Shown here: piece by piece, positions 1 through 21,770 of the stretch
How the letters are laid out: each line of letters opens with the position of its first letter
How positions within the stretch are numbered: position 1 is the stretch's first letter
Assembly: GCA_028284585.1 (NCBI GenBank)
Contig: JANQRK010000008.1
Coordinates: 1,695 to 65,694 of the forward strand
Source of the DNA: Chromatiales bacterium
GTDB taxonomy: Bacteria > Pseudomonadota > Gammaproteobacteria > Chromatiales > Chromatiaceae
Direction of reading: 5' to 3'
DNA: 64,000 nucleotides
Notes under the pieces: model-generated
The model's database searches: none
The model's input: the letters and a program-made list of their open reading frames with translations, nothing else
Told to the model about the DNA's origin: nothing
Program-made: the position numbers and the translations under genes

Positions 1-3000
1 TCAGTGACTTGGCATCGAGCACCGAGAGGTTGAATGCCTCGACGCTGATGTCTGCGTCGGCATCTGAGGTAATCAGCTCACTGTCCGTCACATAGGCCCG
101 TGCTGTGCTCAGGAGCTGGTTGTTTGCAATGACCCCGCCCCGCGAGCCCGAACCGCCAGAGCTGGAGGTGTTTTCGACCGTGCTCTCGTCCAGCGCCGTG
201 ATGCGTGCCATCTCGGTGGCGGTCACCGTGATGCCGCTGCCGGCGGTGATCAGGCTGTCGTCGATGAAGGCCTCGGTGCGGGCATCGACGTCATTGCGCG
301 CAATCAACCCGAAATTATTCTTGGCGGTGCCACCCGAGAGGCCGACCAGGGTGCGCACTGCTTTACCGATACTGCCCAGCGCGTTGAACTCGTCGACGCG
401 CTGCCAGATGCCGAAGTTCGTGTAGTCCGTTGTGCTGAGGACCTGCGTGGTGCCGTCCGCACCCATATAGCGGAAGATATCGCCCTCTTCGAGATCGTCA
501 TTCGGATCGAGGTCGGCGACATTCTTGCCGATGCGCACCTGGTCGCCGAATTCCATCGACGCGGTGCCGGACTCGGTGGTGAACTGGTAGTCCTGGAGTA
601 CCGTCGAGATGGCCTCGTCGACAATGCTGAAGCCGAGCGTATTGGTCTCGCTGGCCTCGGGCTCCATGGAGGTGGTCGCATCGATAATCGCGCTGTCGGT
701 CGCCGTGACATTTACGGCCCCCTCCGCGACCGGCGGGTCACCAAAGGTACCCCGCTCATCGACGTTGTCCATGCTGGCCTGCACCTCTGTGGCGAGCAGG
801 TTCGAGGCCAGGATGAAGGAGGTATTGACGCCGTCCGCACCATAGGCCGCCGCGGCCGCAGAGGTCGCCTGGGTATCTACCCGCGCCGTAATCAGCGCTT
901 CATTCATCGCCGTGACGTTCACATCGCCTAGGACATCCAGGTCGGAATCCACGACCGTTGCCATCACCCTGGCCGGATTGGCCGTGCCGATCGCATCGAT
1001 CAGGGCATCGATGCCCTGTGACAAGACATCCTGCGACTCGTAGCCGATGGTGTTGTAGGCGAGCATCACGCCGACTGACTCGGAGCCGGTCGAGACCGCG
1101 GTACTGTTGGTGGCGGTGATGGTCGACGAGTTCGTGGCGCTGACCGCAAAGTTGCCGGTAGCACCGCCACCGGCAACGCCGGCATCGACAGTGCTGTCCT
1201 CCACCGTCGCCAAGGCACTGCTAAGGATACCGTTGGTGGCGATGACGCCATTGTTGGCGGTCGATGTGCCTTTGCCGAAGATATTGCCGCCGGACGACTC
1301 GGCATCGGTGTCGGCAGTCGCTGTGATCTCGGCGTCGACGCTCGCCGTGACCGCGATATCGCCGGATGCAGTGCGTGCCGCGACATTGCTCAAGCGCGCC
1401 TCGACCTCGGTGGAGACTTCGTTGCGTACCAAAACGCCGCCGTAGGACAGCGAATTCGACGGCAGAAAATTATTGCCCTGCGGGATCAGGTCGGTCTCGA
1501 GGATCTCCTTCCAGAGATCGAGATTGCCGAAGTCCTCGTCGGCGAGGTCGAGATTGCGATTACTGCCGACGAACTCGTAGACCCGACCCGGCGATCCACC
1601 CTCGTCCGGGTCGGCCGCGAAGTCGGTGGTGAGGAATACGCTGTCGCCGAACTCCACCAAGGTGGTGCCGACCAGCTCGTTGCCGTCGGCGTCGAACACC
1701 ATGGTGCCGTCGGTCGAGAAGTCCGCGTCCTCTAAGCCGGCGATGGCCGTCCCGAGCAGGTTGGCACCGCCATCGCTTGACGTAATCGACGACGAGACCA
1801 GCTTGGAGTTGGAGAAGATGCCGGCGCTATCGCTCGCGTTGACCGTGATGCTGCCAGCGGCAAACACGGTCTCGGGCGACGCGGCCCCTGCGGTCTCGAT
1901 GTAGGCACGCGCCGAGGTGTTGGTGCGATTGGCCGCGATAGAGCCACTGACCGCCACACTGGCGACGCCCGCTGCGCCGAACAGCGCATCGGCAGTCGAA
2001 GAGGCTGCGTTGCTGACCGTCGCGTTGATCGCCGGTGAGGACTCGGCGTCGACGACGATGTCGCCACTGGTCGAGACCTCCGTGTCGACGATGAAGGCGC
2101 TGGTGTTACCGCCGTTGCTCGCGACCAGCTGGTCGAAGCCGACCACCACGTCACCGAAGCCCTCACCGACGGTCGCGCCGGTGGGGTTCGCGATTTCGAT
2201 ACCGATGGCATTATAGGCAAAGGCACCGCTGCCATTGCCGGTGACCGCGCCCGAGGTCGAGGACCCGGTCTTGGCCGTTGCCGTGATCAGCGCGTCATTG
2301 CTGGCCTGCACCTCGACGCCGCCGTCGGTCTCGACGAGGCTGTCGAGGATACTTGCCGTGATGTCACCGCCGATGATATTGGTCGCGATGGTCCCGTTGA
2401 AGGTCAGCTCGAGCGGATCGATCTGGGCACCGCCGCTATCAAGAATCTGTGCGTCGGTGAATGCCACTGCCTGGATCGCGCTGACCGCAGTGACGGCGAG
2501 CCCGCCGGACGCTACGGAAATCAGGCTGGAGTTGCCGTCGGTATCGTCGATGGTCGCCGATACCGAGCGCACGATGTCGTTGACCGCCGTGGCCGAACCC
2601 AGCTCCAACGGAAAGGTCAGCGCGCCGGGATCGAGCTGGAACTCCGATGAGGTGGCAGTGAGCTGGGCGGTGTCGCTGGCGCTGAGGTTGACGCCGGCAG
2701 CACCATCTATTTGCACCTCTGAGCCGGCGATGGACGCACTGGTCCCGCCGGTCACGGTGTTCTCCGCGCGCTTGGCCGTCGCCGTATAGGTCGCCATATT
2801 ACTGGCCTCGACATTCAGGCCATCGGCATTGATCTGCGCATTGGTGATACTGGCGGTTGCGGTGTCGCTGGCCGTGGTGACGTGTTGGCCGTACAGATCG
2901 GAAACGATGGTGCCGGCCGTCCCACCACCCGCATCATCGGCAATGCTCGCCGAGACGCTGGTGACACCGGCGTTGGTACTGCTGGTTCCAGATACTGTGG

Positions 3001-4606
3001 CAATGCCATTGGTGGCGTCACCAATGGCAGAAGTCGCCGAACGGGTCAGATCGATGGCCGAGCTGGCGTCGCTCAGATCGAGCTCGGTCAAATCAATGAG
3101 ATCGGCGCTGTCCTCGCTCGGGTCGTAGTCGATACGCACCGCAGAGGCGTCGGCGGCGTTCAAGCTCAAGCTGGTGTCGGCCACCACGGCGACGCCGCCC
3201 GCGATCGTGGCACTCGCGGTATGCGTACCGGTCACACTGGTGTCGCCATCGTCCAACAGACTGGCATCTTGGACCAGCACAGTGTAGAGACCGGAGACGT
3301 CGGCCGTGATGCCGACGACGCCACCGCTTAGCGCCGCATCGACCGCGACGCTCGCGTTGGCCTGATAGCTGAAATCGTCCAGCGTGGACTGACTGTCGCT
3401 GATATCGACCGAGGCATCCAACGTGATGTCGCCGGCCGCATCCAGGGCACCATCGACCACGATGGCCGCGTCCAGTCCGGTATCGACGTCGGCCGCGGCA
3501 GTGATGCTGACATCGCCAGCGGTCGAGGTGATGCTGGCGGTCTCGGTAAGGGTTACGCTCTCCGCGGTCGCGGAGAAATCGCCCGGCATACTCAGGATGG
3601 CATCGATTATCAGGGTATCGGTGCCGGTACCCAGGTCGATCAGCAGTGAATCAAATCCGGTTTCGAAGGTAACGAATTCGAAGGTGTCGGGCGTATCCGT
3701 GCTCTCGAAGGTGAAGACATCGCCGGACCTCGTCAGCGTCGCATTGTCGTCGCTGGCCAAGCTCAATAGGCCGAAGTCGAGCTCGATGGCGCTGACCGTC
3801 GCACCGAGAGGAATCGGTTCCAAGCCATCATAGCGCAGCGTCGCACCGTCCAAGACGACAACACCGGAATGGGGGCCGCTAAAACCGAAGGTCACGGTGT
3901 CATAGTGGCCGTCATTGATCTCCAGGGTATCGAAACCGCCGACGCCGCCGTCGAGCAGGCCGCTCGAGCCGGCACCTTGGTTCAGTACGAAGGTATCCTG
4001 GTTGTGCGCGGCGCCGAGCAGATTTTCCACCCCGCGGAAGCCGACGTGCTCGTTGAGGGTCCCGGCGTCGACGCCTGTGAGTTCCCAGAGGCTGTCCGTG
4101 GCATCGCCGGCCAGGGCATCGTCGCCGCCCCGGCCGTCGAAGGTGATCACCAGAGAACTCAGATCGTGTTCGAGACCCAGATCCAGGGTCAATAGATCAT
4201 CGAGCTCAGATCCCGTGATGACGACCTCGCTGACCGCGACCAATTGCCGTTGGGCGATTATTGGGGTCTGGGCATCCGTGTTATCCAGGATTTGGAGCAC
4301 CGGCGTGCCCGCATGTTCGACCAACCTCAGCGTAAGGTCGAAAGGGTTGTCGGCTTGTGCCGCAAAGCTCAGGGGGTCGGCTGACAGCAGCAGCCGGGGT
4401 TCGAGCGCCTCGAACTGAATCTTGGGGTGGCCCGGCAATGACCGTCGGATCGGGGGAGCCACACGCGGCCCTTCACGCCCTTTGATGCCGCCGCCCGGCC
4501 TGAGGAAAGGGGGTGTCGCTAGGGTCCGGCGGCCGGTTCGCCACAGTCGACTGCAAGCGGCCCGGAACGGCGTCTTGCCAGTCGCAGACACAAACGGGTG
4601 CGCCAT
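1..4606 (-). CDS. Giant LEPR-XLL-motif extracellular/surface protein, N-terminal part (>1535 aa, continues beyond left edge)
   Basis: Manual translation: ATG at 4606 with GGGGAAGAG RBS, then ...IQFEALEPRLLLSAD... (about 4380-4420), Gly/Asp-rich segments (FDGRGGDDAL, LDGGVGGFDTL) and long A/S/V/I/T/D-rich sequence. The ORF track lists no minus-strand ORF in this frame anywhere in 1-4606, consistent with no stop codon; spot checks agreed. Confidence 0.92.
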   Translation of the reverse strand, partial: MAHPFVSATGKTPFRAACSRLWRTGRRTLATPPFLRPGGGIKGREGPRVAPPIRRSLPGHPKIQFEALEPRLLLSADPLSFAAQADNPFDLTLRLVEHAGTPVLQILDNTDAQTPIIAQRQLVAVSEVVITGSELDDLLTLDLGLEHDLSSLVITFDGRGGDDALAGDATDSLWELTGVDAGTLNEHVGFRGVENLLGAAHNQDTFVLNQGAGSSGLLDGGVGGFDTLEINDGHYDTVTFGFSGPHSGVVVLDGATLRYDGLEPIPLGATVSAIELDFGLLSLASDDNATLTRSGDVFTFESTDTPDTFEFVTFETGFDSLLIDLGTGTDTLIIDAILSMPGDFSATAESVTLTETASITSTAGDVSITAAADVDTGLDAAIVVDGALDAAGDITLDASVDISDSQSTLDDFSYQANASVAVDAALSGGVVGITADVSGLYTVLVQDASLLDDGDTSVTGTHTASATIAGGVAVVADTSLSLNAADASAVRIDYDPSEDSADLIDLTELDLSDASSAIDLTRSATSAIGDATNGIATVSGTSSTNAGVTSVSASIADDAGGGTAGTIVSDLYGQHVTTASDTATASITNAQINADGLNVEASNMATYTATAKRAENTVTGGTSASIAGSEVQIDGAAGVNLSASDTAQLTATSSEFQLDPGALTFPLELGSATAVNDIVRSVSATIDDTDGNSSLISVASGGLAVTAVSAIQAVAFTDAQILDSGGAQIDPLELTFNGTIATNIIGGDITASILDSLVETDGGVEVQASNDALITATAKTGSSTSGAVTGNGSGAFAYNAIGIEIANPTGATVGEGFGDVVVGFDQLVASNGGNTSAFIVDTEVSTSGDIVVDAESSPAINATVSNAASSTADALFGAAGVASVAVSGSIAANRTNTSARAYIETAGAASPETVFAAGSITVNASDSAGIFSNSKLVSSSITSSDGGANLLGTAIAGLEDADFSTDGTMVFDADGNELVGTTLVEFGDSVFLTTDFAADPDEGGSPGRVYEFVGSNRNLDLADEDFGNLDLWKEILETDLIPQGNNFLPSNSLSYGGVLVRNEVSTEVEARLSNVAARTASGDIAVTASVDAEITATADTDAESSGGNIFGKGTSTANNGVIATNGILSSALATVEDSTVDAGVAGGGATGNFAVSATNSSTITATNSTAVSTGSESVGVMLAYNTIGYESQDVLSQGIDALIDAIGTANPARVMATVVDSDLDVLGDVNVTAMNEALITARVDTQATSAAAAAYGADGVNTSFILASNLLATEVQASMDNVDERGTFGDPPVAEGAVNVTATDSAIIDATTSMEPEASETNTLGFSIVDEAISTVLQDYQFTTESGTASMEFGDQVRIGKNVADLDPNDDLEEGDIFRYMGADGTTQVLSTTDYTNFGIWQRVDEFNALGSIGKAVRTLVGLSGGTAKNNFGLIARNDVDARTEAFIDDSLITAGSGITVTATEMARITALDESTVENTSSSGGSGSRGGVIANNQLLSTARAYVTDSELITSDADADISVEAFNLSVLDAKSL

Positions 4607-5022
4607 ACTCTTCCCCCTCGTCAACATTCCAGCCGCAAGATCGAATCCGGCTCAGTCAGCAGCAGCCGGCGGAAGACGCACACCCCGTCATCGACGGCGG
4701 GACCGGGCGCACCCAGCCGTCAGCGCAACCTACACTGCAGCGATACTCCGCCCAGACACCACCGCGTCACGCAGGGCTTGACGTGCCATCAGCCGATAGA
4801 CCGGACAGTTGCAATCTGGCACCGCAAAGGACGGTCCGTTGGGCCAGCTGAAGGTAGAGGGATCGCTATCCTAGTTCGAGGTTATTCTATGCTCAGCTTC
4901 CGAATTTCTTTCCTAAAGGATAGCGGCAAAACTATCGAATGCAATCCGCGGGATGCCCTGATGTGCACTCGGACTAGGCGCCGAGTCGAGACCTATTTGA
5001 GCAGTGCGGGCTATAAATAAAA

Positions 5023-5060
5023 TCAGTAAAAACTGAATTTTACAGACTACATTCAATGTA
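5023..5060. promoter_or_regulatory. Two short palindromes in an AT-rich patch upstream of the giant gene
   Basis: TCAGT-AAAA-ACTGA (5023-5036) and TACATT-C-AATGTA (5048-5060). Confidence 0.35.
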
Positions 5061-5086
5061 ACTTAGGAAGAGCTGCACGCGGGCTG

Positions 5087-5899
5087 CTAATCGGCGACGG
5101 TAGGCAGAAAGCGAATACCGCAACGTACACCGGCCGGTACGCGAAACTCGGTATTGGGCAGTACCAATCGAACGCCGAAGGTGTCGCTGGCCGGATCGAT
5201 CACGTTATCCACCACGCTGACGGTAGCAGTCTGGACCTCGGCACCCGGATAGCGGGGACTTACCTCGGCCTGCTGTCCTGCCTTAACGGCCCCAAAACGC
5301 TCCACGGGGAGGAGGACTTCGACATTCAGCGGATCGACTTCGGCGATCCGCAGTATCGTCGTGTTCTCGACCGACTCGCCGGGCGAGAGCAAGCGTTCGA
5401 CCACGATGCCTGCCACCGGACTGACCAGCGTCCTGCGCTTCAAGATCTTGCGCGCCCGTTCGAACTCCAGCTGGGCCAGCTTGCGCTGGTGTTGGGTCTG
5501 ACGCAGCCGCAACTGGGCGCGTCGCGCCTCGGTCGCCGCACGATCTTTCTCGGTCAAAGAGATCACCTTTTTCTCGAACAGATTCTCGATCCGCGCGAGT
5601 TCGCGCCGCGTCAAACCGACATCAGCGCGCCGCTCGGCCAGTTCGGCATCCATTTGCGCCCTCGCCTCGGCCAAGGCGACGCTAGCCTTCTCGACGTCCG
5701 CTTCCAACTGGACCACCACTTGCCCCGACTCGACCACATCACCCCGAGCGGCCAGGATGGACTCGACGATGCCCTCTTCGCGGGTGCTCAGGTCTATCAC
5801 CGAGCTGGGCTCGATCAGGCACCCGAAGCTCTTATCGTCCGACGCCTGACCGGCCGGCACCAAGACGCCGACGAACAACAGAACATGCCATTTCTTCAA
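5087..5899 (-). CDS. HlyD/RND-type periplasmic adaptor (membrane fusion protein), 270 aa
   Basis: Signal-like N-terminus, lipoyl-hybrid half motifs (GIVESILAARGDVVESGQVVVQL; LVSPVAGIVVER), coiled-coil hairpin, IDPASDTFGVRL beta-barrel; TTG start. Confidence 0.9.
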   Translation of the reverse strand: MKKWHVLLFVGVLVPAGQASDDKSFGCLIEPSSVIDLSTREEGIVESILAARGDVVESGQVVVQLEADVEKASVALAEARAQMDAELAERRADVGLTRRELARIENLFEKKVISLTEKDRAATEARRAQLRLRQTQHQRKLAQLEFERARKILKRRTLVSPVAGIVVERLLSPGESVENTTILRIAEVDPLNVEVLLPVERFGAVKAGQQAEVSPRYPGAEVQTATVSVVDNVIDPASDTFGVRLVLPNTEFRVPAGVRCGIRFLPTVAD

Positions 5900-5925
5900 A
5901 ATTCTAGACCCATGCGTGATTGCCC

Positions 5926-7962
5926 TTACTCGGCTGTGCCGCCGAAGGCAAGTAACTCATTCAACTGCTCGTCGGCGCGTAACAGCCTTTTGCGAAGCCG
6001 CGAGTTGCGTCGCTCCAGTTTACGTTGCAGATGGCCGAGCAGTAGCCGACCCGCGGTCCCCATAACCGGCTTGGCACGCGAACGCGCCGGACCGAACAAG
6101 CGATCCAGCCAGTGTTTCGAGCACCCCTGCGCCAACTCGTCCTGCAACGACACCAGGTATTCATGCGATCCAGGGTCACCCTGGCGCCCGCTGCGGCCGG
6201 TCAACTGTCGATCGATACGCCTTGCTTCGTGAAACTCGGTCACTATCACGTGCAAACCACCCGCTTTGGCGGCAGCCGGTGACAATTTGATATCCGTGCC
6301 CCGGCCGGCCATGTTGGTCGCCACGGTCACGCACCCGGCCTGTCCCGCCTGCGCGATCACTTGTGCCTCTTGCCGGTCCTGACGTGCATTAAGGATTTGA
6401 TGCGGAATACCCGCCGCCCGCAACCGCTCGCCGAGCACTTCGGATGCACCAAGGGTTCGGGTACCCACCAACACCGGGCGTTGCTCGGTACGCAATTCGC
6501 AAACCCGCGCCACCACCGCATCCCATTTGTCATCCAGGGTGCGATACACAGCCCCGGGCATGGCACGGCGCTGCGAGCGCCGATGGGTGGGTACTTCCAC
6601 GACATCGAGCCCGTAGACCGCCCACAGCTCGTTCACCACTTCCCGTGCTGTTCCGGTCATTCCGGCAAGCTTCAGGTAGCGCCTAAAGAAGCGTTGGTAG
6701 CTGATACGGGCCAAAGTGCGTGGTGTGCTGGTGATATCGCATGCCTCCTTCGCCTCGATCAGCTGGTGTAGATTACGCTGCCAGGAGCGATCAACCATCG
6801 TGCGGCCGGTGTTTTCATCAATGATTTCGATGCGGCCGTCCCGGACCAGGTAGTGAATGTCCCTCTCGTACAGGTGTAACGCGCACAGCGCCTGGCCCGC
6901 CAACTCTTCGCGGCGACGAGTCGACGACCAAGGGCCACCCAGCGATGCCGCCAGCGCTCGCAAACGGGACTTGCCCGCATCAGTGAAAGTGACGTCGCGA
7001 TGGGCGGCATCGATAGTAAACTCACGCTCCGGTGTGAACTGCTCAGCAACCCAAAGGGCTTGTTGATACATATCCTGATTCACTTCGCCTTGATCACGCC
7101 GTGAGATGATCAATGGCGTGCGCGCCTCATCCACCAACACGCTGTCCGCCTCATCGACGATCGCATAACAAAGGCCTCGCAACATCAGGCGCTGTGATCG
7201 CGGCTGCTCGGTATGTAGGCCTTCCAGCTCCATTCGCAATCGACCGTGCGACGTATCGGTCACTAGCCGATCCCTTAGATAATCGAAGACCAGTTGCTTG
7301 TTGGTGCAGTAGACGATATCGCAGGCATAGGCCGCCTGGCGTTCAGTCGTGCTCATCGCCGCGGTGACGCTCCCCACGGTAAGCCCCATGTAGTCGTAAA
7401 CGGGGGCCATCCACTGGGCATCGCGGGTCACCAAGTAATCGTTCAAGGTGACGATGTGAACAGGCACACCGGCGAGCGCCGATACCCCTGCCGGCAAAGT
7501 CGCCGTCAGGGTCTTGCCTTCGCCGGCCTCCATCTCCGCGACCACGCCGCTGTATATCAGCCATCCACCGAGGAGTTGCACGTCGAAGTGCCGCATGCCC
7601 AGGGTGCGAGACGCAACCTCTTGAACCATGGCGAAACCACGCGCAGCGTCTTTGCGGTGGTTGCCGGTAGCGGACAGACGCCGGCGCAGCAAGCTGATCT
7701 CGGCCTTTAGGGCCTGATCCGACAACCGACGCAGTTGCTCCGCCTCTTTGTGTATCAAGGGCAGAATTTTGCAATTCAGATCGGCACGGCGACGCATGAG
7801 TTGGCGTCTTTGCCCGCTGATCGCTGCGACGGCGCAATCAAGGGCGCCTAGGGGAGTTTCTGGTCGCTGTGGGTAACTGCCTAAGGCGACCCCTGGCCGC
7901 AATGCTGAGCTGAACATCGACTTATACCGTGCGTTGGAAATCTGCCAAATCTCGCGGCCCAT
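5926..7962 (-). CDS. SecA-like DEAD ATPase paralog lacking the C-terminal part (accessory SecA)
   Basis: MEAGEGKT Walker A (7510-7524 for GEGKT), DEADSVLVDEARTPLIIS, GMTGTA, ATNMAGRGTDIKL, RRIDRQLTGRSGRQGDPG; ends about 70 aa later. Likely start is ATG 7917 (MFSSALRPG). Confidence 0.93.
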   Translation of the reverse strand: MGREIWQISNARYKSMFSSALRPGVALGSYPQRPETPLGALDCAVAAISGQRRQLMRRRADLNCKILPLIHKEAEQLRRLSDQALKAEISLLRRRLSATGNHRKDAARGFAMVQEVASRTLGMRHFDVQLLGGWLIYSGVVAEMEAGEGKTLTATLPAGVSALAGVPVHIVTLNDYLVTRDAQWMAPVYDYMGLTVGSVTAAMSTTERQAAYACDIVYCTNKQLVFDYLRDRLVTDTSHGRLRMELEGLHTEQPRSQRLMLRGLCYAIVDEADSVLVDEARTPLIISRRDQGEVNQDMYQQALWVAEQFTPEREFTIDAAHRDVTFTDAGKSRLRALAASLGGPWSSTRRREELAGQALCALHLYERDIHYLVRDGRIEIIDENTGRTMVDRSWQRNLHQLIEAKEACDITSTPRTLARISYQRFFRRYLKLAGMTGTAREVVNELWAVYGLDVVEVPTHRRSQRRAMPGAVYRTLDDKWDAVVARVCELRTEQRPVLVGTRTLGASEVLGERLRAAGIPHQILNARQDRQEAQVIAQAGQAGCVTVATNMAGRGTDIKLSPAAAKAGGLHVIVTEFHEARRIDRQLTGRSGRQGDPGSHEYLVSLQDELAQGCSKHWLDRLFGPARSRAKPVMGTAGRLLLGHLQRKLERRNSRLRKRLLRADEQLNELLAFGGTAE

Positions 7963-8007
7963 TCTTCGCTCGGCCCCTCGCGTTGGACTGCCTGCGCGCG
8001 ATCGCCG

Positions 8008-10155
8008 CTATACCCCGAAATGGCTCAGAAACAACTGTCTGAGACTGCGGTACCACTGGCGTGCCAATGGCTCGACGCCATGATCAAAGCGCACATAGAC
8101 GCGATTGCCGATGCGCTCAATCGCCTGTAGACCCGGAACGGCCAAATCGAGCTGAAATACCCTCTGCAGCGTCTTCAATCCCGCGGGATCCTGTGGATCA
8201 AGCGCTAACGCACCACCGCCTTCGGTCGCCAAGGCCGCAGTCGGCAGACGATCCGCAGCCCCTGGCACAAAGCGGCTGATACTGGCGCGCATCGGTTCTG
8301 CTGTCCAGTCCGCCAAGCGTACATCAACCCGATGGGTTTGCTCGCGAACCAGCCCGATCTGCTCTTGATCGACGACAACTCTCACCGCGATATCTTCGGG
8401 TGAAAGAACATAGCCGACCAATTCGCCGCGTCGCAGGAACCGGCCCGGTAGATCTTCGGCATTGGGCACAATGAATACGCCGTCGGTCGGGCTAAGGATA
8501 ACCAGTGCCGCCAGGCGCTCGCTGGCGCGTGTCAACTCGGCGCGCACGCTCTCGATCTCAGCACGAATGACATCGGCACGGGTCGGATTGGCGAACTCTT
8601 GCTGCATATACCTGGCATCCAACTCCTCCAATCGGCTTTGCAGTAAGCGCACGTTCGCTTGCTGCAAAGTCGCTTCACAACGCACCAGGGGTTGGCCCTT
8701 GCGTACCAAGTCATTCGGTTGCGTCATCAGCTCCGCTACGAAGCCCTCCGCCTCGCTGCGTACCAGCGATTGTTGAGGCATCCAGACGACGCCTTCCGCA
8801 CGCGTCCACAAGGGCGCAGGAACGAGCAGCAGCAACCCGAGCATGCCACCCAGGATACACCCGGTCGACACCAGGGCACGTGCCCGAGTACGTTGCAACA
8901 CCGGGCTATGAAACACAAACCAAAGGCTCTTGAGCGACGGATAGACCACCATCACAACAACAGCCCAAATCGCCAAGATTAGCCCCAGCACAAAGAACTT
9001 GCCCGAAACAAACAGGACAATGACGAACACGATAAACAGGCGATAAACGAAGGAGGCGATGCCATAAATCAAGAACCAAGCCCGCTCGCCGGGCGCGGTT
9101 ACCGGTGAGCTGGCTTGCTCGGCCTTGAAGAGATAGCGCTGCACCAGGTACCCCAAGTACTTTTTGGAGCGCGTGGCAAGATTGGGGATCTCTATGGTGT
9201 CCGCGAGGACATAGTAGCCATCAAATCTAAGCAAAGGATTGCCGTTGAAAAGTAGCGTCGAAATACTGCCAATGAGCACGACATTGAAGGCGAAGGTACG
9301 AACCAATCCCGGCTCGACCAGCAACCAGATCATCAAGGCCAATGCCGCCAGCAGTAGCTCGACCATGATCCCTATTGCGCCCACGATCATGCGTTGGTGT
9401 TTGTCGCTGAACGCAGCCGCCGATGACGCCTCGACATAGGGTATGGGGGCCAGGACCAGCAAGATGATCCCCATCTCGTGTACCTCTCCCCCCCATACCT
9501 TGACCGCATAGCCGTGGCCGAACTCGTGCACCATCTTGATCAGGGGATAAGCCGCCCACAGCATCAATAGATTCTGGAACGTCAGCACACGATCCACGAC
9601 ATTGTCGGTCAATTCGCTCCAGTGCATACCGGCCAAGACAGCACCGGCACCGACGACGAGTAGCCACGCAAAGAACCCGAACCAACTAAACAGAGGGCGA
9701 ACCAACGGCAAGGTGGCGGACAAGAATCGTTCAGGATCGAGCAAGGGGAAGCGAATGGCCAAGGGATTTGTGAACCGCTGCCGCCACTTGGCGCGCCGCT
9801 GACGTTGGCCGCGCTGAAATACCTCTCGCGTATCCGGTATCACGTCCGATTGTAGGACGTCGGCCGCGTGTAGCTGGCCTAGCAGCCGCAGCAGTTCATC
9901 TTGCGTGGGGGCATGCTCACCGAGTTCGCGTTCGGCCAGTTCCCAAACCTGCTGGAGTGTGCGGTGCCCGTCGAGCAGGCCGATCACGAAGTTGGCCGCT
10001 GGGGTGAAGCGGAACGAGCGTTCGTTGGATGGATCGCGCAGCACGTACCAGATTTGGCCTCGGTACTCGTGTCGATCGAACTGCGCATGCCGCCGAATGC
10101 TCGGCTTCAGCGCCGCCACGCGGTACCAAGATGTGCTGGTCAGTGCCTCCCGCAT
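8008..10155 (-). CDS. PqqD/RRE-like domain + site-2 (M50) metalloprotease + HlyD-like adaptor fusion, 715 aa
   Basis: HEFGH (9514-9528) and NPLLRFDG (9217-9240) M50 motifs, multiple TM helices, C-terminal lipoyl-hybrid/coiled-coil region; N-terminal about 90 aa resembles the PqqD pattern (YVLRDP...FRF...LLDGHRTL). Confidence 0.88.
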   Translation of the reverse strand: MREALTSTSWYRVAALKPSIRRHAQFDRHEYRGQIWYVLRDPSNERSFRFTPAANFVIGLLDGHRTLQQVWELAERELGEHAPTQDELLRLLGQLHAADVLQSDVIPDTREVFQRGQRQRRAKWRQRFTNPLAIRFPLLDPERFLSATLPLVRPLFSWFGFFAWLLVVGAGAVLAGMHWSELTDNVVDRVLTFQNLLMLWAAYPLIKMVHEFGHGYAVKVWGGEVHEMGIILLVLAPIPYVEASSAAAFSDKHQRMIVGAIGIMVELLLAALALMIWLLVEPGLVRTFAFNVVLIGSISTLLFNGNPLLRFDGYYVLADTIEIPNLATRSKKYLGYLVQRYLFKAEQASSPVTAPGERAWFLIYGIASFVYRLFIVFVIVLFVSGKFFVLGLILAIWAVVVMVVYPSLKSLWFVFHSPVLQRTRARALVSTGCILGGMLGLLLLVPAPLWTRAEGVVWMPQQSLVRSEAEGFVAELMTQPNDLVRKGQPLVRCEATLQQANVRLLQSRLEELDARYMQQEFANPTRADVIRAEIESVRAELTRASERLAALVILSPTDGVFIVPNAEDLPGRFLRRGELVGYVLSPEDIAVRVVVDQEQIGLVREQTHRVDVRLADWTAEPMRASISRFVPGAADRLPTAALATEGGGALALDPQDPAGLKTLQRVFQLDLAVPGLQAIERIGNRVYVRFDHGVEPLARQWYRSLRQLFLSHFGV

Positions 10156-10171
10156 GTTGTGACTCCGCGAT

Positions 10172-12073
10172 CTACGGCTTCCAGGACCACAGCCAGAATC
10201 GCAGCCAGTGGATCAGCTTGTGGGTCCAGATCCAAACCTGCTTGCGCTGACCGATCTGGATCTTGCCGACGCCCTCCATTCCCGGACGAAGTCGCGACGA
10301 GGACCCTTCTAGGTTTGCTTCAACCCTGAAATAGTTGCCCCCTCCCTTAGCACTGGAGATCGGGGTGATCTTGGTGATCCGCATGGGCAAAATCTCGGTG
10401 CTCAATCCAGCTAGCACCAACTGACCTACCTGCCCCGGCTGCACCTGCGAGGCATCTCGCTCATCCACGTTGAGAATGACCCGATAGCTGTTCAGGGGTG
10501 CGATCTCGAACAAGGTATCGCCGCGTGCCACAGGTACGCCCAGTGACTGACTCATATCACCGGATACCACGACACCGTCGAACGGTGCCTTCAATCGGGT
10601 GCGCGCCAACTGCTCGTCTAGCAGCAACAATTGACTGTCGGCCTGGTCGATCTGCGCCTGTAACACACGTACTTGCGCACGATCGCGGTCTGCAAGCGCC
10701 TCGCTGTATTCGCGCTGTCGTTGTTCTTTCTGGCTCGCCCACTTGGCCCGTTGTAGGCGCAGATCTTTGTCTTCGAGCGTACACAAGACGTCGCCGGCCT
10801 GGACCACATCACCTGCCCGGTAGAACGCCTGGTCGACATAGCCATCGAGCAGTGCGGTGACTACCCGTTGAATCGAACCCTGCAGATGGGCATCAGCGGT
10901 AACCCGATAATCGCCTTCGGCGAAGTACGCGTAGGCCGCGACACAAGTCAGCAATGTTGCGGCCAACTTGAGTCCAAGGTGCCGGGGTCCGATCAACCGC
11001 CCTCCGAATCCCACTACAGAATCCCAGAGCTTGCTAACGATCCAGCGGTCGTCGCGGCGCTTGACCTCGAGGATTGGGCCGGCCAAGGTCGCAATGTTGC
11101 GACACAATTCCACAGTCGCTTGATCGAAAGATTGTCCCAGGGGACGGGCCAAAGTCATTGCGCCGACAAGCCGATCACCGTCTACCAAGGGGATGGTGCA
11201 AACGCCACCCAGGGTCGCCTGCTCCAAGAGCTGCGTCTGGGCACGAATCTGGACCAGGCTCGCCTCCGACTGATCGGGTGCTGGGCTGACCAAGACCCTT
11301 GCCTGCTCTATGGCTTCGTCCATCGCAGCACCGATCGAACGATGCAAGTTGGTCTTCTCGTTGATTGCCGCACTATGCGACCAGGCTGACACCCGAACTC
11401 GTCGGCCCGACCCGAAGCCCAGCGCGGCCCATTCGCAATCCAAATGCGTGGCAAGCTCGGTGGCCAGGGCGGTCACCGCAGCGCGAAAACTTGCTTGCTC
11501 CAAAGGCACAGCGATCAGTTCGAGCAGCGTCACCAGCCGCTCCTTGGAAGTGAAGGCTTTGCGCCTGACCAAGGCCTCCAACCATCCGCAGCTCCACTGC
11601 AATTGGCGCATGATGGAGCCTAGCTCGGTCGAGTCGCGGTCCTTGACTTCGACGGCGGCAACCCCGTGCAACAGTTCATCGACGACGATAGGGAAAGCTA
11701 CCGCATCTGGTCCACGGCGATCGCTGACTGTCGTCGAGTCACTACTACGTACGACACCCCGCCGCTCTGCCATGGCCAACTCGGCCGCCGCCACCAACAG
11801 AGGACTGCCGGATCCACCAACCGGCCAATAGGCGAGCGGCCGGTACGGGCCCACTCCGGCCTTGCCGAGGACGACAGCTGCATGTTGTACACCGCCGGTG
11901 AAGCGGCACAGCAATTCCAACCAGGCGGCCGCGAAGGCCTCGGGCGAAGATGCCCGTTGGAATTCGACCCAAGCTTGTTTATCGATGTAAGGTGCATCCG
12001 CCGCCGCGGTGACCTCACCCTCGCACTCGACCGAGGCAGAATCGTGCGACGTATCCTCAAGCCCAGTTGCCAA
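10172..12073 (-). CDS. GAF-domain-containing HlyD-family adaptor, 633 aa
   Basis: Two GAF-like segments (AFPIVVDELLHGVAAVE; CTIPLVDGDRLVGAMTL), one TM (LGLKLAATLLTCVAAYAYF), then hybrid motif, coiled coil, LKAPFDGVVVSGD, LRPGMEGVGKI. Confidence 0.88.
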   Translation of the reverse strand: MATGLEDTSHDSASVECEGEVTAAADAPYIDKQAWVEFQRASSPEAFAAAWLELLCRFTGGVQHAAVVLGKAGVGPYRPLAYWPVGGSGSPLLVAAAELAMAERRGVVRSSDSTTVSDRRGPDAVAFPIVVDELLHGVAAVEVKDRDSTELGSIMRQLQWSCGWLEALVRRKAFTSKERLVTLLELIAVPLEQASFRAAVTALATELATHLDCEWAALGFGSGRRVRVSAWSHSAAINEKTNLHRSIGAAMDEAIEQARVLVSPAPDQSEASLVQIRAQTQLLEQATLGGVCTIPLVDGDRLVGAMTLARPLGQSFDQATVELCRNIATLAGPILEVKRRDDRWIVSKLWDSVVGFGGRLIGPRHLGLKLAATLLTCVAAYAYFAEGDYRVTADAHLQGSIQRVVTALLDGYVDQAFYRAGDVVQAGDVLCTLEDKDLRLQRAKWASQKEQRQREYSEALADRDRAQVRVLQAQIDQADSQLLLLDEQLARTRLKAPFDGVVVSGDMSQSLGVPVARGDTLFEIAPLNSYRVILNVDERDASQVQPGQVGQLVLAGLSTEILPMRITKITPISSAKGGGNYFRVEANLEGSSSRLRPGMEGVGKIQIGQRKQVWIWTHKLIHWLRFWLWSWKP

Positions 12074-12238
12074 AGCTTTCCCCCACCCGCCAGCGGTAAA
12101 CTTTCGTCACTCCACATTAGCGCCAGGTGGCAGAACAGCACGGATCGCGGACGCGGCGACCACCCGTAGATGCGCGCCCGCGAGACCTAAGATTCACCGG
12201 CAACTGAATGCTAGAGGAATCCCTGGGGCTTCACCAGT

Positions 12239-12263
12239 CCGGCAGTGAGGGGAACACTGCCGG
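12239..12263. other. GC-rich hairpin, possible terminator or 5' UTR structure
   Basis: Perfect 9-bp inverted repeat CCGGCAGTG-AGGGGAA-CACTGCCGG between the M12 peptidase gene and the secretion cluster; no clear U-tract. Confidence 0.3.
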
Positions 12264-12598
12264 CCCAACCTTGCTTGACCCAAGGGGCCTGCTACCGCAA
12301 CCGGGGGCGTCAGCATCACCTGACGACACATGGGACACCCAGACTTGGATCATTTTGAGAGTTGTCTTTCGAGACAATACGCTAGCGTGAAGAATCTAGC
12401 GCCGAATACAGGCGATGGCGCTGAATTGCGGGGCATACTCATGCGGCATGCGGTGAATGTGACCACCTTGGCCGCATGGCCTCCCAAGAGGATTTGCCTC
12501 TTGGGAGGGTACGGCCAAGGCATCTTTCATTGCCCTATTCGCAAGATCACGCTATCCGAAACAGGGTCTCAAATGCAGCTGCGTTCGTAGTGACAGGT

Positions 12599-14767
12599 TC
12601 AAGGCGCTGCATCGGCCTTGACATTGTCAATGATGACGACAGTCCTTTCGTCGGAATAGGTCTTTTTGTTGTTGAATCCACCAATGGCGACCCTGTGCTC
12701 GCCGGCCGAGAGTTCGCCGAGGTCGACTTGGAACCTCTGCCAACCGGACGTCTTCCAAGGACCACCGTTTCCGTCACCCCTGATCCGCTTCAGAAAGCTA
12801 CCACCAGGTGCACCAATCAGGTTTCCATCGACAGACAGAAGTGCATCACTGTACTCGTCGCTCTCATAACCTGGGGCCTGGGCTATGCGATAGTCAAAGG
12901 ATAGGGTTACCTTGCTCGGGCTACTCAAGGAAAAGGTCCTCTGCCATCCACCCGACATATCCTGGACTGCGCGGTTGTCCCGGCCGCCCAGCACCACTGC
13001 TAGGAAGCCGTCGCCATTTCGCCAGGCGGCATGTCTTCCCGAGGCGTAACGCGGGTGATTGGTATTGCGGAAAGCATCAGCGACGAACTCGAAGCCCTCG
13101 GTGTCTTCAGTGAAGTCCGAATGAAAAATTGCCGGCCCGTCGTCACCGCGGACGTTGATTCTTACCTCTGCCGTATTGTTCGAAGGATTGTCGTCATTGT
13201 CCGCTGCCGAGTTCACGGTGCTTGTCAGCGTATCCGCTGCCGGCCCGGCTTGTAATCGCATGACGACCGTCCGTGTGGAACTGCTGTCAATGTCGCCAAA
13301 GTCACAGCTCACCTCCGACTGACTCTCAAAACACTGCGCCCCGCCGTCGGCGACGTCGATCATCGCCAAACTCTCTGGTATCGAGATCGCAGCCGTTACA
13401 TTTGTCGCGACGGCCACACCGCTGTTTCTCACCTCCACTCGATACTCGAATTCGCTCAGGACCGTCGTTTCGATCGGGTTCGTCGGAATGATCACTCGAA
13501 CGTCCGTGGTCGCAGGAGGCGGCTGATCAGGGTCGTCAACTTCTGTGATACAGACCGCGCGATCAATATGCGGTTGCATCTGGTCCAAACTGCACTGAGA
13601 GAATTGATCGCTGCCATTGCCGAACGGATTCATAATGAAGTTCCCTGCCGTATTCGCACAGGGTGAGCCGCCCTGATTATCGTGCGGCGCACCGAAGTTG
13701 TGGCCCATCTCATGCGCGACTATCAAGGCTCCCGCCGTGCCTCTACCAGTGGTTTGACTCAGCCCGACACCAAAGGCCTCGCGACACAAGGTGCCGACGT
13801 AGGCAATGCCGACGACGCCACCATTTAGATCTCTCCCGGTAAACAGGTGCGCCAAACCAGGATTGACAAAGTCGCTAGCGGCCACAAAGTCGCTGAACTG
13901 GTCCAGAAGAGTGCCGGCTTGCGAGGAACTCAATCCTCCGTTGCTCCGCAATGCACGAATCTCAGTGACATTGATTTGAACACCCACCTGCTCAGAGTAG
14001 ATGCCGTCAACAATGTTCATACGGGCCACCACAGCGGCATCCGGATTGCTGGGATTGGCGTCGACAAACTGCCTGTCCGCGACCACGGCGATGTCGAGCT
14101 TTCGAGCCGCCGCCGGGAGAGCCTGTCTCAATGTACGCAGCTCGTCCACCAAGCCTTGGTAATCATCCATAGGCCTCGCGCTTGGATGTACCGCACAGCT
14201 TCCCGTACAGGACTCGGTATCTGAAAGCCGATATATCACTGGATACGGCTGGCGCTGTCGTGCCTTTGGTGCCGCAGCGCCTTGCTGATCATCCAGCATC
14301 GGTTCCACTCGGTCGGATGTATCGATGATGTACAGCTCCTCGCCATCCCACATGGTTCCGGAGATCTGCTCTCCCGCACGATTGATGCGTACCCAAGACC
14401 CATCGATGCCTTCGATGTAGCCCTCGTAGGCCGTCATGGATTTTTCGAGTCGCTGTCTCTGCTCTTCGGGCAGATCAGCAATCAACCGGGTATTCGGCTT
14501 GAGGACTACAGCGAACCGCTTTCCAAAGGCCTCGAAAGTCAGCGTGGCCTCAGATGCCTGCTCGGCTTGCTGCGCCGCTTGGGCGTTATCAGTTGATAAG
14601 GAGGGCGGTAGGCCGAACTCCACCGATTGCATGGGCTCATGATGGAGTATGCGGAAATCTTCATCGACGGTGAGGGCACCTTCGTGAACACCATGAGCGA
14701 GTGAGGCTCGCCCTTGAATACCGATACACAGTATTGCTAACAAAATATACGTTGTAGATCTTCTCAT
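12599..14767 (-). CDS. Secreted reprolysin-like (M12B) zinc metallopeptidase with DUF11/Ig-like and C-terminal beta-sandwich domains
   Basis: Signal peptide, prodomain, HEMGHNFGAPHD zinc motif, Met-turn FIMNP, DUF11-like NSAADNDDNPSNNTA; ATG 14767 has a GGAG RBS. Confidence 0.9.
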   Translation of the reverse strand: MRRSTTYILLAILCIGIQGRASLAHGVHEGALTVDEDFRILHHEPMQSVEFGLPPSLSTDNAQAAQQAEQASEATLTFEAFGKRFAVVLKPNTRLIADLPEEQRQRLEKSMTAYEGYIEGIDGSWVRINRAGEQISGTMWDGEELYIIDTSDRVEPMLDDQQGAAAPKARQRQPYPVIYRLSDTESCTGSCAVHPSARPMDDYQGLVDELRTLRQALPAAARKLDIAVVADRQFVDANPSNPDAAVVARMNIVDGIYSEQVGVQINVTEIRALRSNGGLSSSQAGTLLDQFSDFVAASDFVNPGLAHLFTGRDLNGGVVGIAYVGTLCREAFGVGLSQTTGRGTAGALIVAHEMGHNFGAPHDNQGGSPCANTAGNFIMNPFGNGSDQFSQCSLDQMQPHIDRAVCITEVDDPDQPPPATTDVRVIIPTNPIETTVLSEFEYRVEVRNSGVAVATNVTAAISIPESLAMIDVADGGAQCFESQSEVSCDFGDIDSSSTRTVVMRLQAGPAADTLTSTVNSAADNDDNPSNNTAEVRINVRGDDGPAIFHSDFTEDTEGFEFVADAFRNTNHPRYASGRHAAWRNGDGFLAVVLGGRDNRAVQDMSGGWQRTFSLSSPSKVTLSFDYRIAQAPGYESDEYSDALLSVDGNLIGAPGGSFLKRIRGDGNGGPWKTSGWQRFQVDLGELSAGEHRVAIGGFNNKKTYSDERTVVIIDNVKADAAP

Positions 14768-15190
14768 TGGCACTCCAAGTTGGTGGATTGGGAAAGTGAG
14801 ATCCAGTCATATTTTTATTTCATTTAGATAGCTCCACGGCCGACCAGATACGTCCGAAAAATTGATTTCCACAGCTCTGCTTCACGGCCACCGATGGATA
14901 ATTCGCCAATTGGCAACATTGAGATATTGGAGAGTCATGCCACGGATAAGCGAAAAACCGAGATAATTGATAGTTGCTAGGAATATGGACTAGCGAAATC
15001 AACGAATACTCTCCACATCGATGTCCAATAAATGTCGTTCGGCGTCATTCAGATCGATCGTCGAAAACAAACCCAGTTCGAACATCCAGTTAGAGGTACC
15101 GCGGTCGTGCGCCAATGCATCACGCTCGCTTGGATGACCCATGGGTCAAAGCGACCTTAGCGCTTCAACAGGCATTCGGTCTGTTGGATT

Positions 15191-15418: not shown

Positions 15419-15454
15419 CCTAAGGAACTTCTGAAAAATCAGAGGTTCCTTAGG
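15419..15454. repeat. 16-bp near-perfect palindrome overlapping the kinase stop codon
   Basis: CCTAAGGAACTTCTGA-AAAA-TCAGAGGTTCCTTAGG, one mismatch. Confidence 0.7.
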
Positions 15455-16787
15455 TGCCTTTGCCGGAGTGCGCCACCTGAGCTTCGGCGGAAGCTGTGGC
15501 CAGGGGCCAGTCCAGGCGAAACCGCGCACCGCCGAGTGGGCTATCCTCGACGGTTACCCTCCCCTTGTGCTTGCGAGCAATGCGGGCAACGATTGCAAGG
15601 CCGAGTCCAGTGCCGCCGGAGATACGAGAACGGCTTGGATCCAGTCGGGTGAAGGGTTCGAAGATACGTTTGTGTTGGTAAGTTGGAATACCTAGGCCGT
15701 CATCGTCAACGGCTAGCCAGAACTCGTCGCCCCGTTTTTCCCAAGCAATCCGTACCCGACCCTGCGCAAAGCGAGACGCGTTACTGACCAGGTTCGATAA
15801 GGCGCGTTGAAAATACACCGGATCCACCTGGGCGCGCAGCGGAATGGTCATAGCTGGCTGGGTAGTGAATTCAATATCCGGGTTCGACTCTCGCTGATTC
15901 TGGACAATCTGCTCGACCAGCGGGTCCACTGCAACCCATTGCAGGGTAAGCAGTGGCGTGCCGGGTTGGAGACGGACATAGCCCAGCACCTCGGCCACGA
16001 GGTTGCGCAAATCGTCGATTGCTTCGTCCATGTCATTCCAGGCCATGCCACGGGGCTCATTCACGTCGACAGCAGCGATCTCGACAGCAAAACTCAAGCG
16101 GGAGAGCGGTGCCCTGAATTCGTGAGCCACGGCTTGCAATAGTTCTTGCTGTTCCTGCAGTAGCTGCTGGATCTCCGCAGCCATTCGGTTCAATGCCAAG
16201 GCAAGATCACCGATGGCATCGGGATAGCGATCATCGGCGCGCACATGCCAATTGCCTTGGCCGATAGCGCGCGCTGCCGACTCCAATGACTTCAACCGCC
16301 TTACCACAGGTATTGTCAGGAGGACACCGAACAAGCCGATGACCAAGGTTGCACCAATCGCAGCAGTCAGAATGTCCGAGGGATAAGGGTCTGCCAATGG
16401 CTCGGGCGGCATAATATGGGCCACCGTCGGGGTACCAGGGATCTTTAGAGTTAATTTGGGGCCGCCCTCGTTCTCGGTTACTACCAGGGGCTCACCCGCT
16501 GCAAGCACCGCCCTGATATCTTCGGGCCAGTCAGCTTCATCCAGCGGTGCCAGAGAGACCTTGAGACGAGACTGCTTGAAGTAGCGCTCTATCTCCTCGC
16601 TCCATTTGCCGCGATCCGTCGCAGCCAGTCTCTGCACCATACTGTGTCCGGTTGTTTGCAGTTCTGCCAGAAGTTCCTCAGTGTCTGGCCGGCCGGGCGG
16701 GTAACGTAACAACCAGTACACAATCGCGGATGCCGCCAGCAAGGCAAGCAGCATGCCGGCGAAAAACCGGAAAAAGAGCTGGATCAT
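15450..16787 (-). CDS. Sensor histidine kinase, RstB/CpxA-like (2 TM, HAMP, HisKA, HATPase)
   Basis: AVAHEFRAPLSRL H-box, NLVSNA, VDDDGLGI, GGTGLGL; ATGA overlap with the regulator. Confidence 0.95.
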   Translation of the reverse strand: MIQLFFRFFAGMLLALLAASAIVYWLLRYPPGRPDTEELLAELQTTGHSMVQRLAATDRGKWSEEIERYFKQSRLKVSLAPLDEADWPEDIRAVLAAGEPLVVTENEGGPKLTLKIPGTPTVAHIMPPEPLADPYPSDILTAAIGATLVIGLFGVLLTIPVVRRLKSLESAARAIGQGNWHVRADDRYPDAIGDLALALNRMAAEIQQLLQEQQELLQAVAHEFRAPLSRLSFAVEIAAVDVNEPRGMAWNDMDEAIDDLRNLVAEVLGYVRLQPGTPLLTLQWVAVDPLVEQIVQNQRESNPDIEFTTQPAMTIPLRAQVDPVYFQRALSNLVSNASRFAQGRVRIAWEKRGDEFWLAVDDDGLGIPTYQHKRIFEPFTRLDPSRSRISGGTGLGLAIVARIARKHKGRVTVEDSPLGGARFRLDWPLATASAEAQVAHSGKGT

Positions 16788-17530
16788 TGCATCAGAATGT
16801 AACCCACACCGCGCACGCTTTTGATTAGCGCGGGGTCTCTTGGGTCGTCGCCCAGCTTCTTGCGCAACTTGGAGATACGCAAATCGATCGTTCGATCCTG
16901 TCCGTCATGTGCTAGACCGCGCGTATGCCAGTGCATCACATCCCTACTCAGCACATGGCCGGCGTGGCGAGCCAGCAGCCACAGCAGCTCGAACTCGGCA
17001 CTCGTCAAGAAGACAGCTTGACCCCGCAAGAACGCGGCACGTGAGCCTGCAGTCAGCTCCAAGTCACCCACTCTTATCGATCGCGCCCCCTCCTTCCAAA
17101 CATCGCTTTTCGCGGGCACTCGACCGATCCGGTGTGATTCTTCAGTAGCGTCCTCCTTACAGCGGCGCAGTAAAGCTCGCACCCTGGCCAGCAGAACACG
17201 TGGTCGAACTGGCTTGGCAAGATAATCGTCAGCACCAGTTTCAAGCCCGGCAACTTCGTCAACGTCGTCACCCAAGGCTGTCAGAATCATGATCGGGCCA
17301 GCATAGGAGCTTCGAACGCTGCGACATATAGTGAGGCCGTCTGTGCCCGGCAGCATGACATCCAATATGACCAATGTCGGCTGCTCGCGAGCAATGCGTT
17401 CCAACGCGCGCGCCCCATCTGCTTCGGTATCCACTTGGAACCCGTTGCTCGTGAGGAACTTTGCAACCAATCTTGTGAGTTCAGCATCATCGTCGACCAA
17501 GAGGACCGGTGAAGACTGTGGATTCGACAT
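16784..17530 (-). CDS. OmpR-family response regulator, RstA-like
   Basis: VLLVDDD, ILDVMLPGTDG, ADDYLAKP, DGQDRTIDLRISKLRKKLGDDP, IKSVRGVGY; start refined to ATG 17530. Confidence 0.95.
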   Translation of the reverse strand: MSNPQSSPVLLVDDDAELTRLVAKFLTSNGFQVDTEADGARALERIAREQPTLVILDVMLPGTDGLTICRSVRSSYAGPIMILTALGDDVDEVAGLETGADDYLAKPVRPRVLLARVRALLRRCKEDATEESHRIGRVPAKSDVWKEGARSIRVGDLELTAGSRAAFLRGQAVFLTSAEFELLWLLARHAGHVLSRDVMHWHTRGLAHDGQDRTIDLRISKLRKKLGDDPRDPALIKSVRGVGYILMQ

Positions 17531-18774: not shown

Positions 18775-18882
18775 TCGCTATTTGTTGTTACGATGCGCGG
18801 ACGCCACGCTTGGTGAAACCTGTCACATCCAACCGATTGACGCTAGGGAATATGATCTCAATCTTGTCCTCGTACCGTCGCC

Positions 18883-19506: not shown

Positions 19507-19529
19507 AGTTTTATTCCCGTCTGACGAGG

Positions 19530-19976: not shown

Positions 19977-20012
19977 AACGCTAACCTCCCTGTGTTAGTT
20001 CGACGTTTGTGC

Positions 20013-21751: not shown

Positions 21752-21770
21752 AACCACGCGCCTAGGAACC

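Follow-up and report, generated by a model that had tools for sequence, protein, structure and literature searches.

A family called 'secondary SecA_DEAD domain proteins' and the locus that encodes them were described in silico by Kamneva, Poudel and Ward (PLoS One 2015, PMC4452313). The locus has the gene row GAF-HlyD, Peptidase_M50(-HlyD), SecA_DEAD and HlyD/Biotin_lipoyl, sometimes joined by an OEP gene, as in Methylobacterium extorquens AM1 (META1p2402-2399), it contains no ATP-binding cassette (ABC) transporter, and its patchy distribution suggested horizontal transfer. The authors proposed that the SecA_DEAD protein serves as the ATPase and that the M50 protein forms a membrane pore replacing the ABC transporter, and they placed the secondary SecA_DEAD clade as sister to actinobacterial SecA2 (PMC4452313). 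A literature search found no later follow-up to this article. Here we report a computational analysis of a short SecA paralogue, P0001, that is encoded in a 64,000-nucleotide stretch of DNA from a Chromatiales bacterium (Gammaproteobacteria; assembly GCA_028284585.1, contig JANQRK010000008.1, positions 1,695 to 65,694), referred to below as the window. Judged by its sequence, P0001 is a genuine, intact and ordinary member of the described family: the window locus agrees with it in having a second SecA_DEAD protein that lacks all or most of SecA_SW, in the row of genes, in the absence of an ABC transporter and in forming a separate clade, and nothing essential differs. The inference of a SecA_DEAD motor working with an M50 pore has thus been in print since 2015 and is not new. 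What we did not find in the accessible part of PMC4452313 is the link to giant cargo proteins headed by a LEPR-XLL motif, the RRE domain, the variants of the locus that lack SecA or carry an ATPase-dead one, and the conserved terminal motifs of the short SecA. On balance we lean, if only slightly, towards a reading in which P0001 is derived from SecA and works in the cytoplasm as the feeder of a TolC-linked exporter of the LEPR-XLL giants that has no ABC transporter.

A SecA motor that stops in the scaffold helix

The gene for P0001 is open throughout. Its longest form encodes 678 residues, and the alignment of homologues points to M16 (window position 7917) as the probable start; since the homologues begin at this position, the real length is probably 663 residues. 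Pfam recognises SecA_DEAD (PF07517) at residues 65-447, the preprotein cross-linking domain (PPXD) inserted in the first nucleotide-binding domain (NBD1), and the second nucleotide-binding domain (NBD2) as P-loop_SecA, and the same scan returned no match on P0001 to SecA_SW (PF07516) or SEC-C. All ATPase motifs are intact, namely Walker A (GEGKT), DEAD, MTGTA, motif V (TNMAGRGTDI) and motif VI (GRSGRQGDPG). Homology to Escherichia coli SecA extends to about residue 654 of its 901, which places the break some 25 residues inside the long scaffold helix, and the sequence then closes with LLAFGGTAE; P0001 therefore has no wing, two-helix finger or Zn-binding tail. Motif VI lies 81 residues from the C-terminus, compared with 63-81 residues in the relatives. 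The AlphaFold model, which draws on 32 family members (pLDDT 81, pTM 0.76), adopts the SecA fold and ends in a single terminal helix at residues 635-673, and Foldseek ranks SecA structures first for it, among them the engineered truncation SecA-N68. Pfam, the motifs, the alignment and the model thus agree with the initial annotation, which had read P0001 as a full SecA motor without the SecY-engaging C-terminal domains. Two of its finer points need qualification: the preprotein-binding region that it called compact indeed falls about 20 residues short of its E. coli counterpart but is a complete PPXD by Pfam, and the roughly 70 residues that it counted after NBD2 do make a short tail but not a featureless one, as they consist of the scaffold-helix stub and a conserved C-terminal motif.

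P0001 resembles canonical SecA (E. coli b0098 and the housekeeping copy of its own genome) in its NBD1, PPXD and NBD2, in all helicase-type motifs, in its fold and in a sequence identity of 38-41%. It differs from canonical SecA not only in lacking the wing, the two-helix finger with the intramolecular regulator of ATP hydrolysis (IRA1) and the Zn-binding tail for SecB, but also in an N-terminal extension of about 40 residues, an insert of about 19 residues in NBD1, DEAD in place of DEVD and the absence of the E. coli-type variable insert in NBD2. In extent it is nearly identical to SecA-N68 (PDB 5k9t), which comprises the motor and PPXD without the C-terminal third and ranks high among the Foldseek matches; unlike this laboratory construct, the natural protein extends some 25 residues further along the scaffold helix and carries conserved terminal motifs. 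SecA-N68 is a deregulated, hyperactive ATPase that does not support translocation through SecY.

A second SecA dedicated to few cargo proteins recalls the SecA2 proteins of Gram-positive bacteria (mycobacterial, clostridial and streptococcal). Unlike P0001, SecA2 proteins retain the scaffold and the two-helix finger; their partner is SecY or SecY2, and secY2 and asp genes are found in the SecA2-SecY2 loci. The genome under study contains a separate full-length housekeeping secA (contig C88:35410-38217, 935 residues, Zn-finger tail CPCGSGKKYK) and a single secY (contig C95), which agrees with the lack of secY2 stated in the initial annotation and provides the full-length secA that it had asked to confirm. 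The NCBIfam SecA and SecA2 models align to P0001 only up to about position 600 of their 760-815 positions and every score falls under its cut-off. The canonical models TIGR00963 and NF009538 give 608 bits against a cut-off of 814 and 602 against 800, and the SecA2 models give 542 against 1085 (TIGR04397), 493 against 930 (TIGR03714), 448 against 725 (TIGR04221) and 420 against 1100 (NF012136). Assignment to the Gram-positive type of SecA2 was rejected on these scores and on the lack of secY2.

The same comparison bears on an alternative that we regard as unlikely but worth weighing, a two-step route in the manner of SecA2. The short SecA would deliver the giants to SecYEG, alone or together with housekeeping SecA, while the M50-HlyD protein would act as leader peptidase and the adaptors and TolC would collect the cargo in the periplasm, as MacAB-TolC does with some peptides. 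NBD1, PPXD and NBD2, which account for a large share of the contacts with SecY in solved complexes, are intact in P0001, and its model superposes on the SecY-bound SecA of 5eul, 6itc and 3din; the finger that inserts into SecY and the wing are nonetheless absent across the entire family. The Gram-positive systems that have only SecA2 use the single SecY, and one SecY is what this genome offers, and PMC4452313 places the clade next to actinobacterial SecA2, yet the SecA2 scores lie far under all cut-offs.

The family to which P0001 belongs is widespread and uniform. More than 120 clusters at 90% identity comprise proteins of 652-685 residues that are 52-59% identical to P0001, and in an exhaustive search of 1.84 billion representatives at least 145 clusters at 50% identity measure 640-690 residues, nearly all of the best 150, the exceptions being fragments and three longer proteins. 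The orthologues are thus themselves short and not full-length, which speaks against a local truncation. A maximum-likelihood tree groups the 71 short SecAs in a single clade and sets six gammaproteobacterial housekeeping SecAs apart, with a Shimodaira-Hasegawa-like approximate likelihood ratio (SH-aLRT) of 100; the branching order within the clade is out of step with taxonomy and so fits a locus that spread horizontally. The clade is marked by the motif LRPGxxLGxYPxR in the N-terminal extension, behind which a helix (LDxxAxxxxG) matches the N-terminal helix of canonical SecA in the alignment, as well as by the NBD1 insert, DEAD for DEVD, the missing variable insert and the LAFSGxxE tail. Almost every one of the 70 short SecAs inspected ends in this tail, which housekeeping SecA lacks, and it is a candidate docking peptide. 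Walker A is strictly kept in P0001 and in 64 of these 70 relatives, and the other ATPase motifs in 54 to 63 of them.

Short length alone could suggest a functionless remnant of a duplicated secA, whether locally truncated or a decaying pseudogene. Conserved length and synteny rule this out, the former extending to 640-690 residues in hundreds of clusters from many phyla, and with no in-frame stops, conserved clade-specific termini and preserved catalytic motifs the chance that P0001 is such a remnant is practically nil. Three further sequences are recorded for completeness: P0339 is an ordinary long SecA; from the search of representatives, P0390 (4,930 residues) combines embedded SecA-like domains with repeated Fis-type helix-turn-helix domains; and P0394 (993 residues), in which a SecA breaking off within NBD2 is joined to a HlyD adaptor, may be an artefact of assembly or gene calling and was not used as evidence of a physical link.

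The M50-HlyD operon and its giant neighbours

P0001 is the third of four co-directional genes that encode a GAF-HlyD adaptor (P0003), an M50-HlyD protein (P0002), the short SecA and a small HlyD-type adaptor (P0005), with gaps of 16, 45 and 26 nucleotides (Table 1). P0003 has about 360 cytoplasmic residues that include the GAF domain, one transmembrane helix and a periplasmic adaptor part. The N-terminal 400 residues of P0002 match the NCBIfam model of a daptide leader-peptide protease (daptide_HExxH, 2e-47). The family of P0002 comprises thousands of clusters, nearly all of exactly 715 residues, in which HExxH and NPLLRFDG are invariant; its AlphaFold model shows an RRE-like N-domain of three strands and three helices, a helical membrane domain and an adaptor that Foldseek matches to MexA, AcrA and MacA. 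No ABC domain was detected in the six scanned products of window positions 1-14773, and neither the list of open reading frames (ORFs) nor Pfam revealed a Sec gene within the window locus.

Table 1 Coordinates of the features discussed in the text (window positions, unless another locus is named)
Feature	Position	Strand	Basis or remark
P0001, short SecA paralogue	5926..7962	minus	Open ORF, longest form 678 residues; Pfam SecA_DEAD, SecA_PP_bind and P-loop_SecA
Clade-specific N-terminal extension of P0001, residues 16-60	7783..7917	minus	Alignments; low to medium model confidence
PPXD of P0001, inserted in NBD1, residues 295-403	6754..7080	minus	Pfam PF01043 SecA_PP_bind, 3e-23, model 2-110 of 110
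NBD2 of P0001, residues 464 to about 612	6127..6573	minus	Pfam PF21090 P-loop_SecA, alignment, motif check
Stub of the long helical-scaffold helix of P0001, residues 635-669	5956..6060	minus	AlphaFold helix 635-673; aligns with E. coli residues of about 630 to 654
C-terminal tail of P0001, LLAFGGTAE (family consensus LAFSGxxE-COOH)	5929..5955	minus	Ends nearly all 70 short SecAs inspected
P0002, RRE/PqqD-like, M50 (site-2) protease and HlyD adaptor fusion, 715 residues	8008..10155	minus	Pfam, NCBIfam
P0003, GAF-HlyD adaptor, 633 residues	10172..12073	minus	Pfam GAF, HlyD_3/HlyD_D23
P0005, small periplasmic HlyD-type adaptor with signal peptide, 270 residues	5087..5899	minus	Pfam HlyD_D23; NCBIfam RND_mfp above cut-off
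Giant LEPR-XLL gene, 5' part	2..4627	minus	NCBIfam NF012209 at residues 71-92; LktA_tand_53 repeats
LEPR-XLL motif QFEALEPRLLLSADP	4352..4417	minus	NF012209; preceded by about 70 basic residues without a hydrophobic core
ATPase-dead short SecA, L040	L040:12123-14057
ATPase-dead short SecA, L055	L055:12932-14866
ATPase-dead short SecA, L075	L075:12787-14694
ATPase-dead short SecA, L057			SecA-like ORF ending at 8870
ATPase-dead short SecA, L046
Secreted reprolysin-like (M12B) metalloprotease with DUF11 domain, 724 residues	12599-14773	minus	Directly upstream of the cassette
HAMP histidine kinase and OmpR-type response regulator	15450-17545	minus	Upstream of the locus

An alignment scan for M50-HlyD proteins, with one genome per species, recovered the family in at least 579 species, and the best 80 loci were taken for comparison; the prefix L marks loci compared in this work. 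These 80 span Alpha-, Beta- and Gammaproteobacteria, Myxococcota, Desulfobacterota, Nitrospirota, Acidobacteriota, Methylomirabilota, Planctomycetota and Bacteroidota, and among the cultured carriers are Marinobacterium, a Pseudomonas isolate, Mesorhizobium, Bradyrhizobium, Methylobacterium/Methylorubrum and Jannaschia. The gene for GAF-HlyD lies directly upstream of M50-HlyD in all of these loci. Where enough downstream sequence was available (69 of the 80), a SecA-like gene follows M50-HlyD directly in all but two loci (67/69), often with an overlap of eight nucleotides, and the small HlyD gene comes after the short SecA in most. We further sampled 300 genomes spread evenly over the same class and assessed co-occurrence by Fisher's test. 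M50-HlyD was present in 37 genomes, LEPR-XLL proteins in 19 and both in 16 (p = 7e-14); the short SecA was found in 12, together with M50-HlyD in 11 (p = 3e-10) and with LEPR-XLL proteins in nine (p = 4e-10). The initial annotation had named the adjacent M50-HlyD protein as the probable partner of the ATPase, and the coupling in gene order and gene content supports such a link as far as gene order can. It also counts against delivery to SecYEG, seeing that the tight and often overlapping association is with M50-HlyD and with no Sec gene.

The presumed cargo of the cassette are the LEPR-XLL giants. In the window such a gene starts 459 nucleotides downstream of the small HlyD gene and encodes at least 2,107 residues, the ORF running through C113:1-1694 and past the end of its contig (C113). 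The LEPR-XLL motif likewise heads the neighbouring giants in L003, L034, L038, L057, L059, L062, L067 and L078, and where the 5' ends of the giant ORFs flanking the cassette are visible they begin with xFExLEPRLLLSAD. Giants that adjoin the cassette measure 6,703, 19,026, 13,848, 10,327 and 8,630 residues, and the LEPR-XLL ORFs among the 300 genomes, which range from 2,000 to 13,848 residues, mostly abut it. Studholme et al. 2004, cited in PMC8567305, proposed that the motif marks proteins for export, and the literature also notes it on giant Chlorochromatium proteins. In the window protein it lies behind a basic stretch; a leader without a hydrophobic core speaks against the two-step route through SecYEG. 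Between the LAFSGxxE tail of the short SecA and the LLLSAD stretch of the cargo leader there is a loose likeness, from which a role in docking or as a pseudo-substrate is conceivable.

With HlyD-type adaptors, a TolC duct in some loci and giant repetitive cargo next door, the cassette is reminiscent of type I systems such as HlyB-HlyD-TolC and LapB-LapC-LapE, and as in those systems no periplasmic intermediate would be expected. TolC-family genes occur within the operon in betaproteobacterial and acidobacterial loci, and OEP genes were recorded in it at L004, L014, L016, L022 and L074. Unlike type I systems, the cassette has no ABC transporter, and the conserved element of its cargo is the N-terminal LEPR-XLL motif whereas the type I signal is C-terminal. 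In place of a single adaptor type it possesses three different adaptors, one of them joined in a single protein to an intramembrane protease that has a leader-binding domain, plus a SecA-derived ATPase.

Further upstream in the window the cassette is flanked by the M12B metalloprotease and the two-component pair listed in Table 1. The metalloprotease is probably unrelated because it is not kept beside the cassette in L003 or L004. A 445-residue ORF at 15450-16787 was considered as an OEP and rejected, as it encodes the histidine kinase, though it has the same length as the OEP of L004.

Cassettes with a dead motor or with none

Several observations weigh against a machine driven by the short SecA. 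In a subclade of five family members (L040, L055, L075, L057 and L046) the Walker A, Walker B, III, V and VI motifs are all gone. Hydrolysis of ATP by the short SecA is therefore not required in all cases. Members of the subclade retain the slot after M50-HlyD and a C-terminal LAFxGRxE tail, so that the LAF/LSF-type ending is common to active and dead forms, and four of the five genomes carry no second short SecA. Other cassettes have no SecA gene at all. The genome of P0001 itself holds two GAF-HlyD/M50-HlyD copies without SecA (C91:39565-67995 and C115:4320-8242), the former with a HlyD adaptor directly next to it and then LEPR-XLL proteins of 3,344 and 2,003 residues. Three-gene cassettes without SecA lie beside LEPR-XLL genes in the genomes G292, G291, G148 and G112, and also in L094-L097; in G292, G291 and G148 a short SecA is found nowhere in the genome. 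In the M50-HlyD tree the SecA-less forms cluster within the SecA-linked family, and to account for them the state must have changed at least twice. Because both kinds of variant exist, the paralogue cannot be the only source of energy for the machine.

Further points on the same side concern the channel and the duct. The model of P0002 is of no more than moderate confidence (pTM 0.38), and we know of no M50 protease with channel activity. Matches to the TolC family (OEP) are nil in the six products of window positions 1-14773 and in the eight products of 15450-24530, and the best TolC candidate of the genome is on contig C2, where it adjoins an ABC transporter-like gene. The whole case moreover rests on gene order, co-occurrence and domain content. 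In exponential-phase M. extorquens AM1, finally, the SecA, M50 and HlyD genes were barely expressed (PMC4452313).

The variants lend themselves to a second alternative, in which the paralogue would mainly be a cargo-specific holdase, targeting factor or gate that maintains the giant protein unfolded and presents the leader to RRE-M50, with ATP as a switch for binding and release, and the energy for translocation would come from housekeeping SecA, the proton-motive force or folding outside the cell. The ATPase-dead subclade, which keeps the same operon slot and tail in genomes without another short SecA, is what such a role would predict, and so are SecA-less cassettes with equally large cargo (7,543 residues in G291 and 3,344 on C91) and a PPXD that is kept throughout the family. 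The retention of Walker A in most relatives, and of the other motifs nearly as often, argues for selection on hydrolysis, and SecA-derived motors have been processive translocases in every case studied; we consider a mainly non-motor paralogue improbable. Delivery to SecYEG would accommodate the SecA-less cassettes as well, in that these would rely on housekeeping SecA. Cargo size was tried as the reason for the presence or absence of SecA and rejected, since the SecA-less cassettes accompany cargo of 3,344 to 7,543 residues. Taken together, the SecA-less cassettes and the ATPase-dead subclade show that the paralogue also has a non-catalytic role (such as docking, holding or gating) beside any motor role; with both variants in existence, it fits best as an added feeder or gate on a core M50-HlyD machine.

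Two side observations concern the surroundings of these variants. The C91 copy also adjoins two small HlyD adaptors and a sensor/response-regulator pair. Beside ATPase-dead cassettes lie ORFs (L055:15882-19535 and L075:15558-17108) with an N-terminal flavin-binding GGGxxGW signature, and from this signature they may be read as flavin adenine dinucleotide (FAD)-dependent halogenase-like genes.

A putative exporter for LEPR-XLL proteins

In the reading that we favour, P0001 as a SecA-derived feeder of an ABC-less exporter, coupling of the motor to a non-SecY channel is plausible; the physical interactions, the pore and the direction of transport we infer from the genes and their products. The cassette would consist of GAF-HlyD, RRE-M50-HlyD, the short SecA and the small HlyD adaptor, plus a TolC-type outer channel supplied by the operon or from elsewhere. 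The short SecA would clamp unfolded and possibly nascent cargo in its PPXD-NBD2 region and, where its motifs are intact, spend ATP on feeding it in the N-to-C direction into the inner-membrane assembly of M50-HlyD and GAF-HlyD. There the RRE-like domain would read the leader and the M50 site would remove it, and the three adaptors would form the bridge to TolC. Docking of the short SecA would involve its N-terminal extension and the LAFSGxxE tail and not the canonical SecY contacts. The short SecA shares with SecA-N68 the lack of IRA1, and for this reason a partner, such as the cytoplasmic GAF domains, probably controls its ATPase.

A broader claim, to which we give somewhat less than an even chance, is that the cassette constitutes a distinct and as yet unnumbered secretion system of double-membraned bacteria, which would answer the 20-year-old question of how the planctomycete proteins with the motif 'RRLxxExLExRxLLA' (LEPR-XLL) are exported. 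RRE would read and M50 cut, the adaptors and TolC would provide the duct, and a finger-less SecA motor would feed proteins of up to about 19,000 residues, possibly co-translationally, the motor being present, dead or absent according to lineage.

If the favoured reading holds true, SecA, the universal motor of the Sec system, would have been rebuilt at least once for TolC-linked export of the largest proteins known from bacteria, and the orphan LEPR-XLL signal would have found its machine. Since the family occurs in cultivable bacteria, its function is open to ordinary genetics, and the natural ATPase-dead and SecA-less variants provide ready comparisons for the contribution of the motor.

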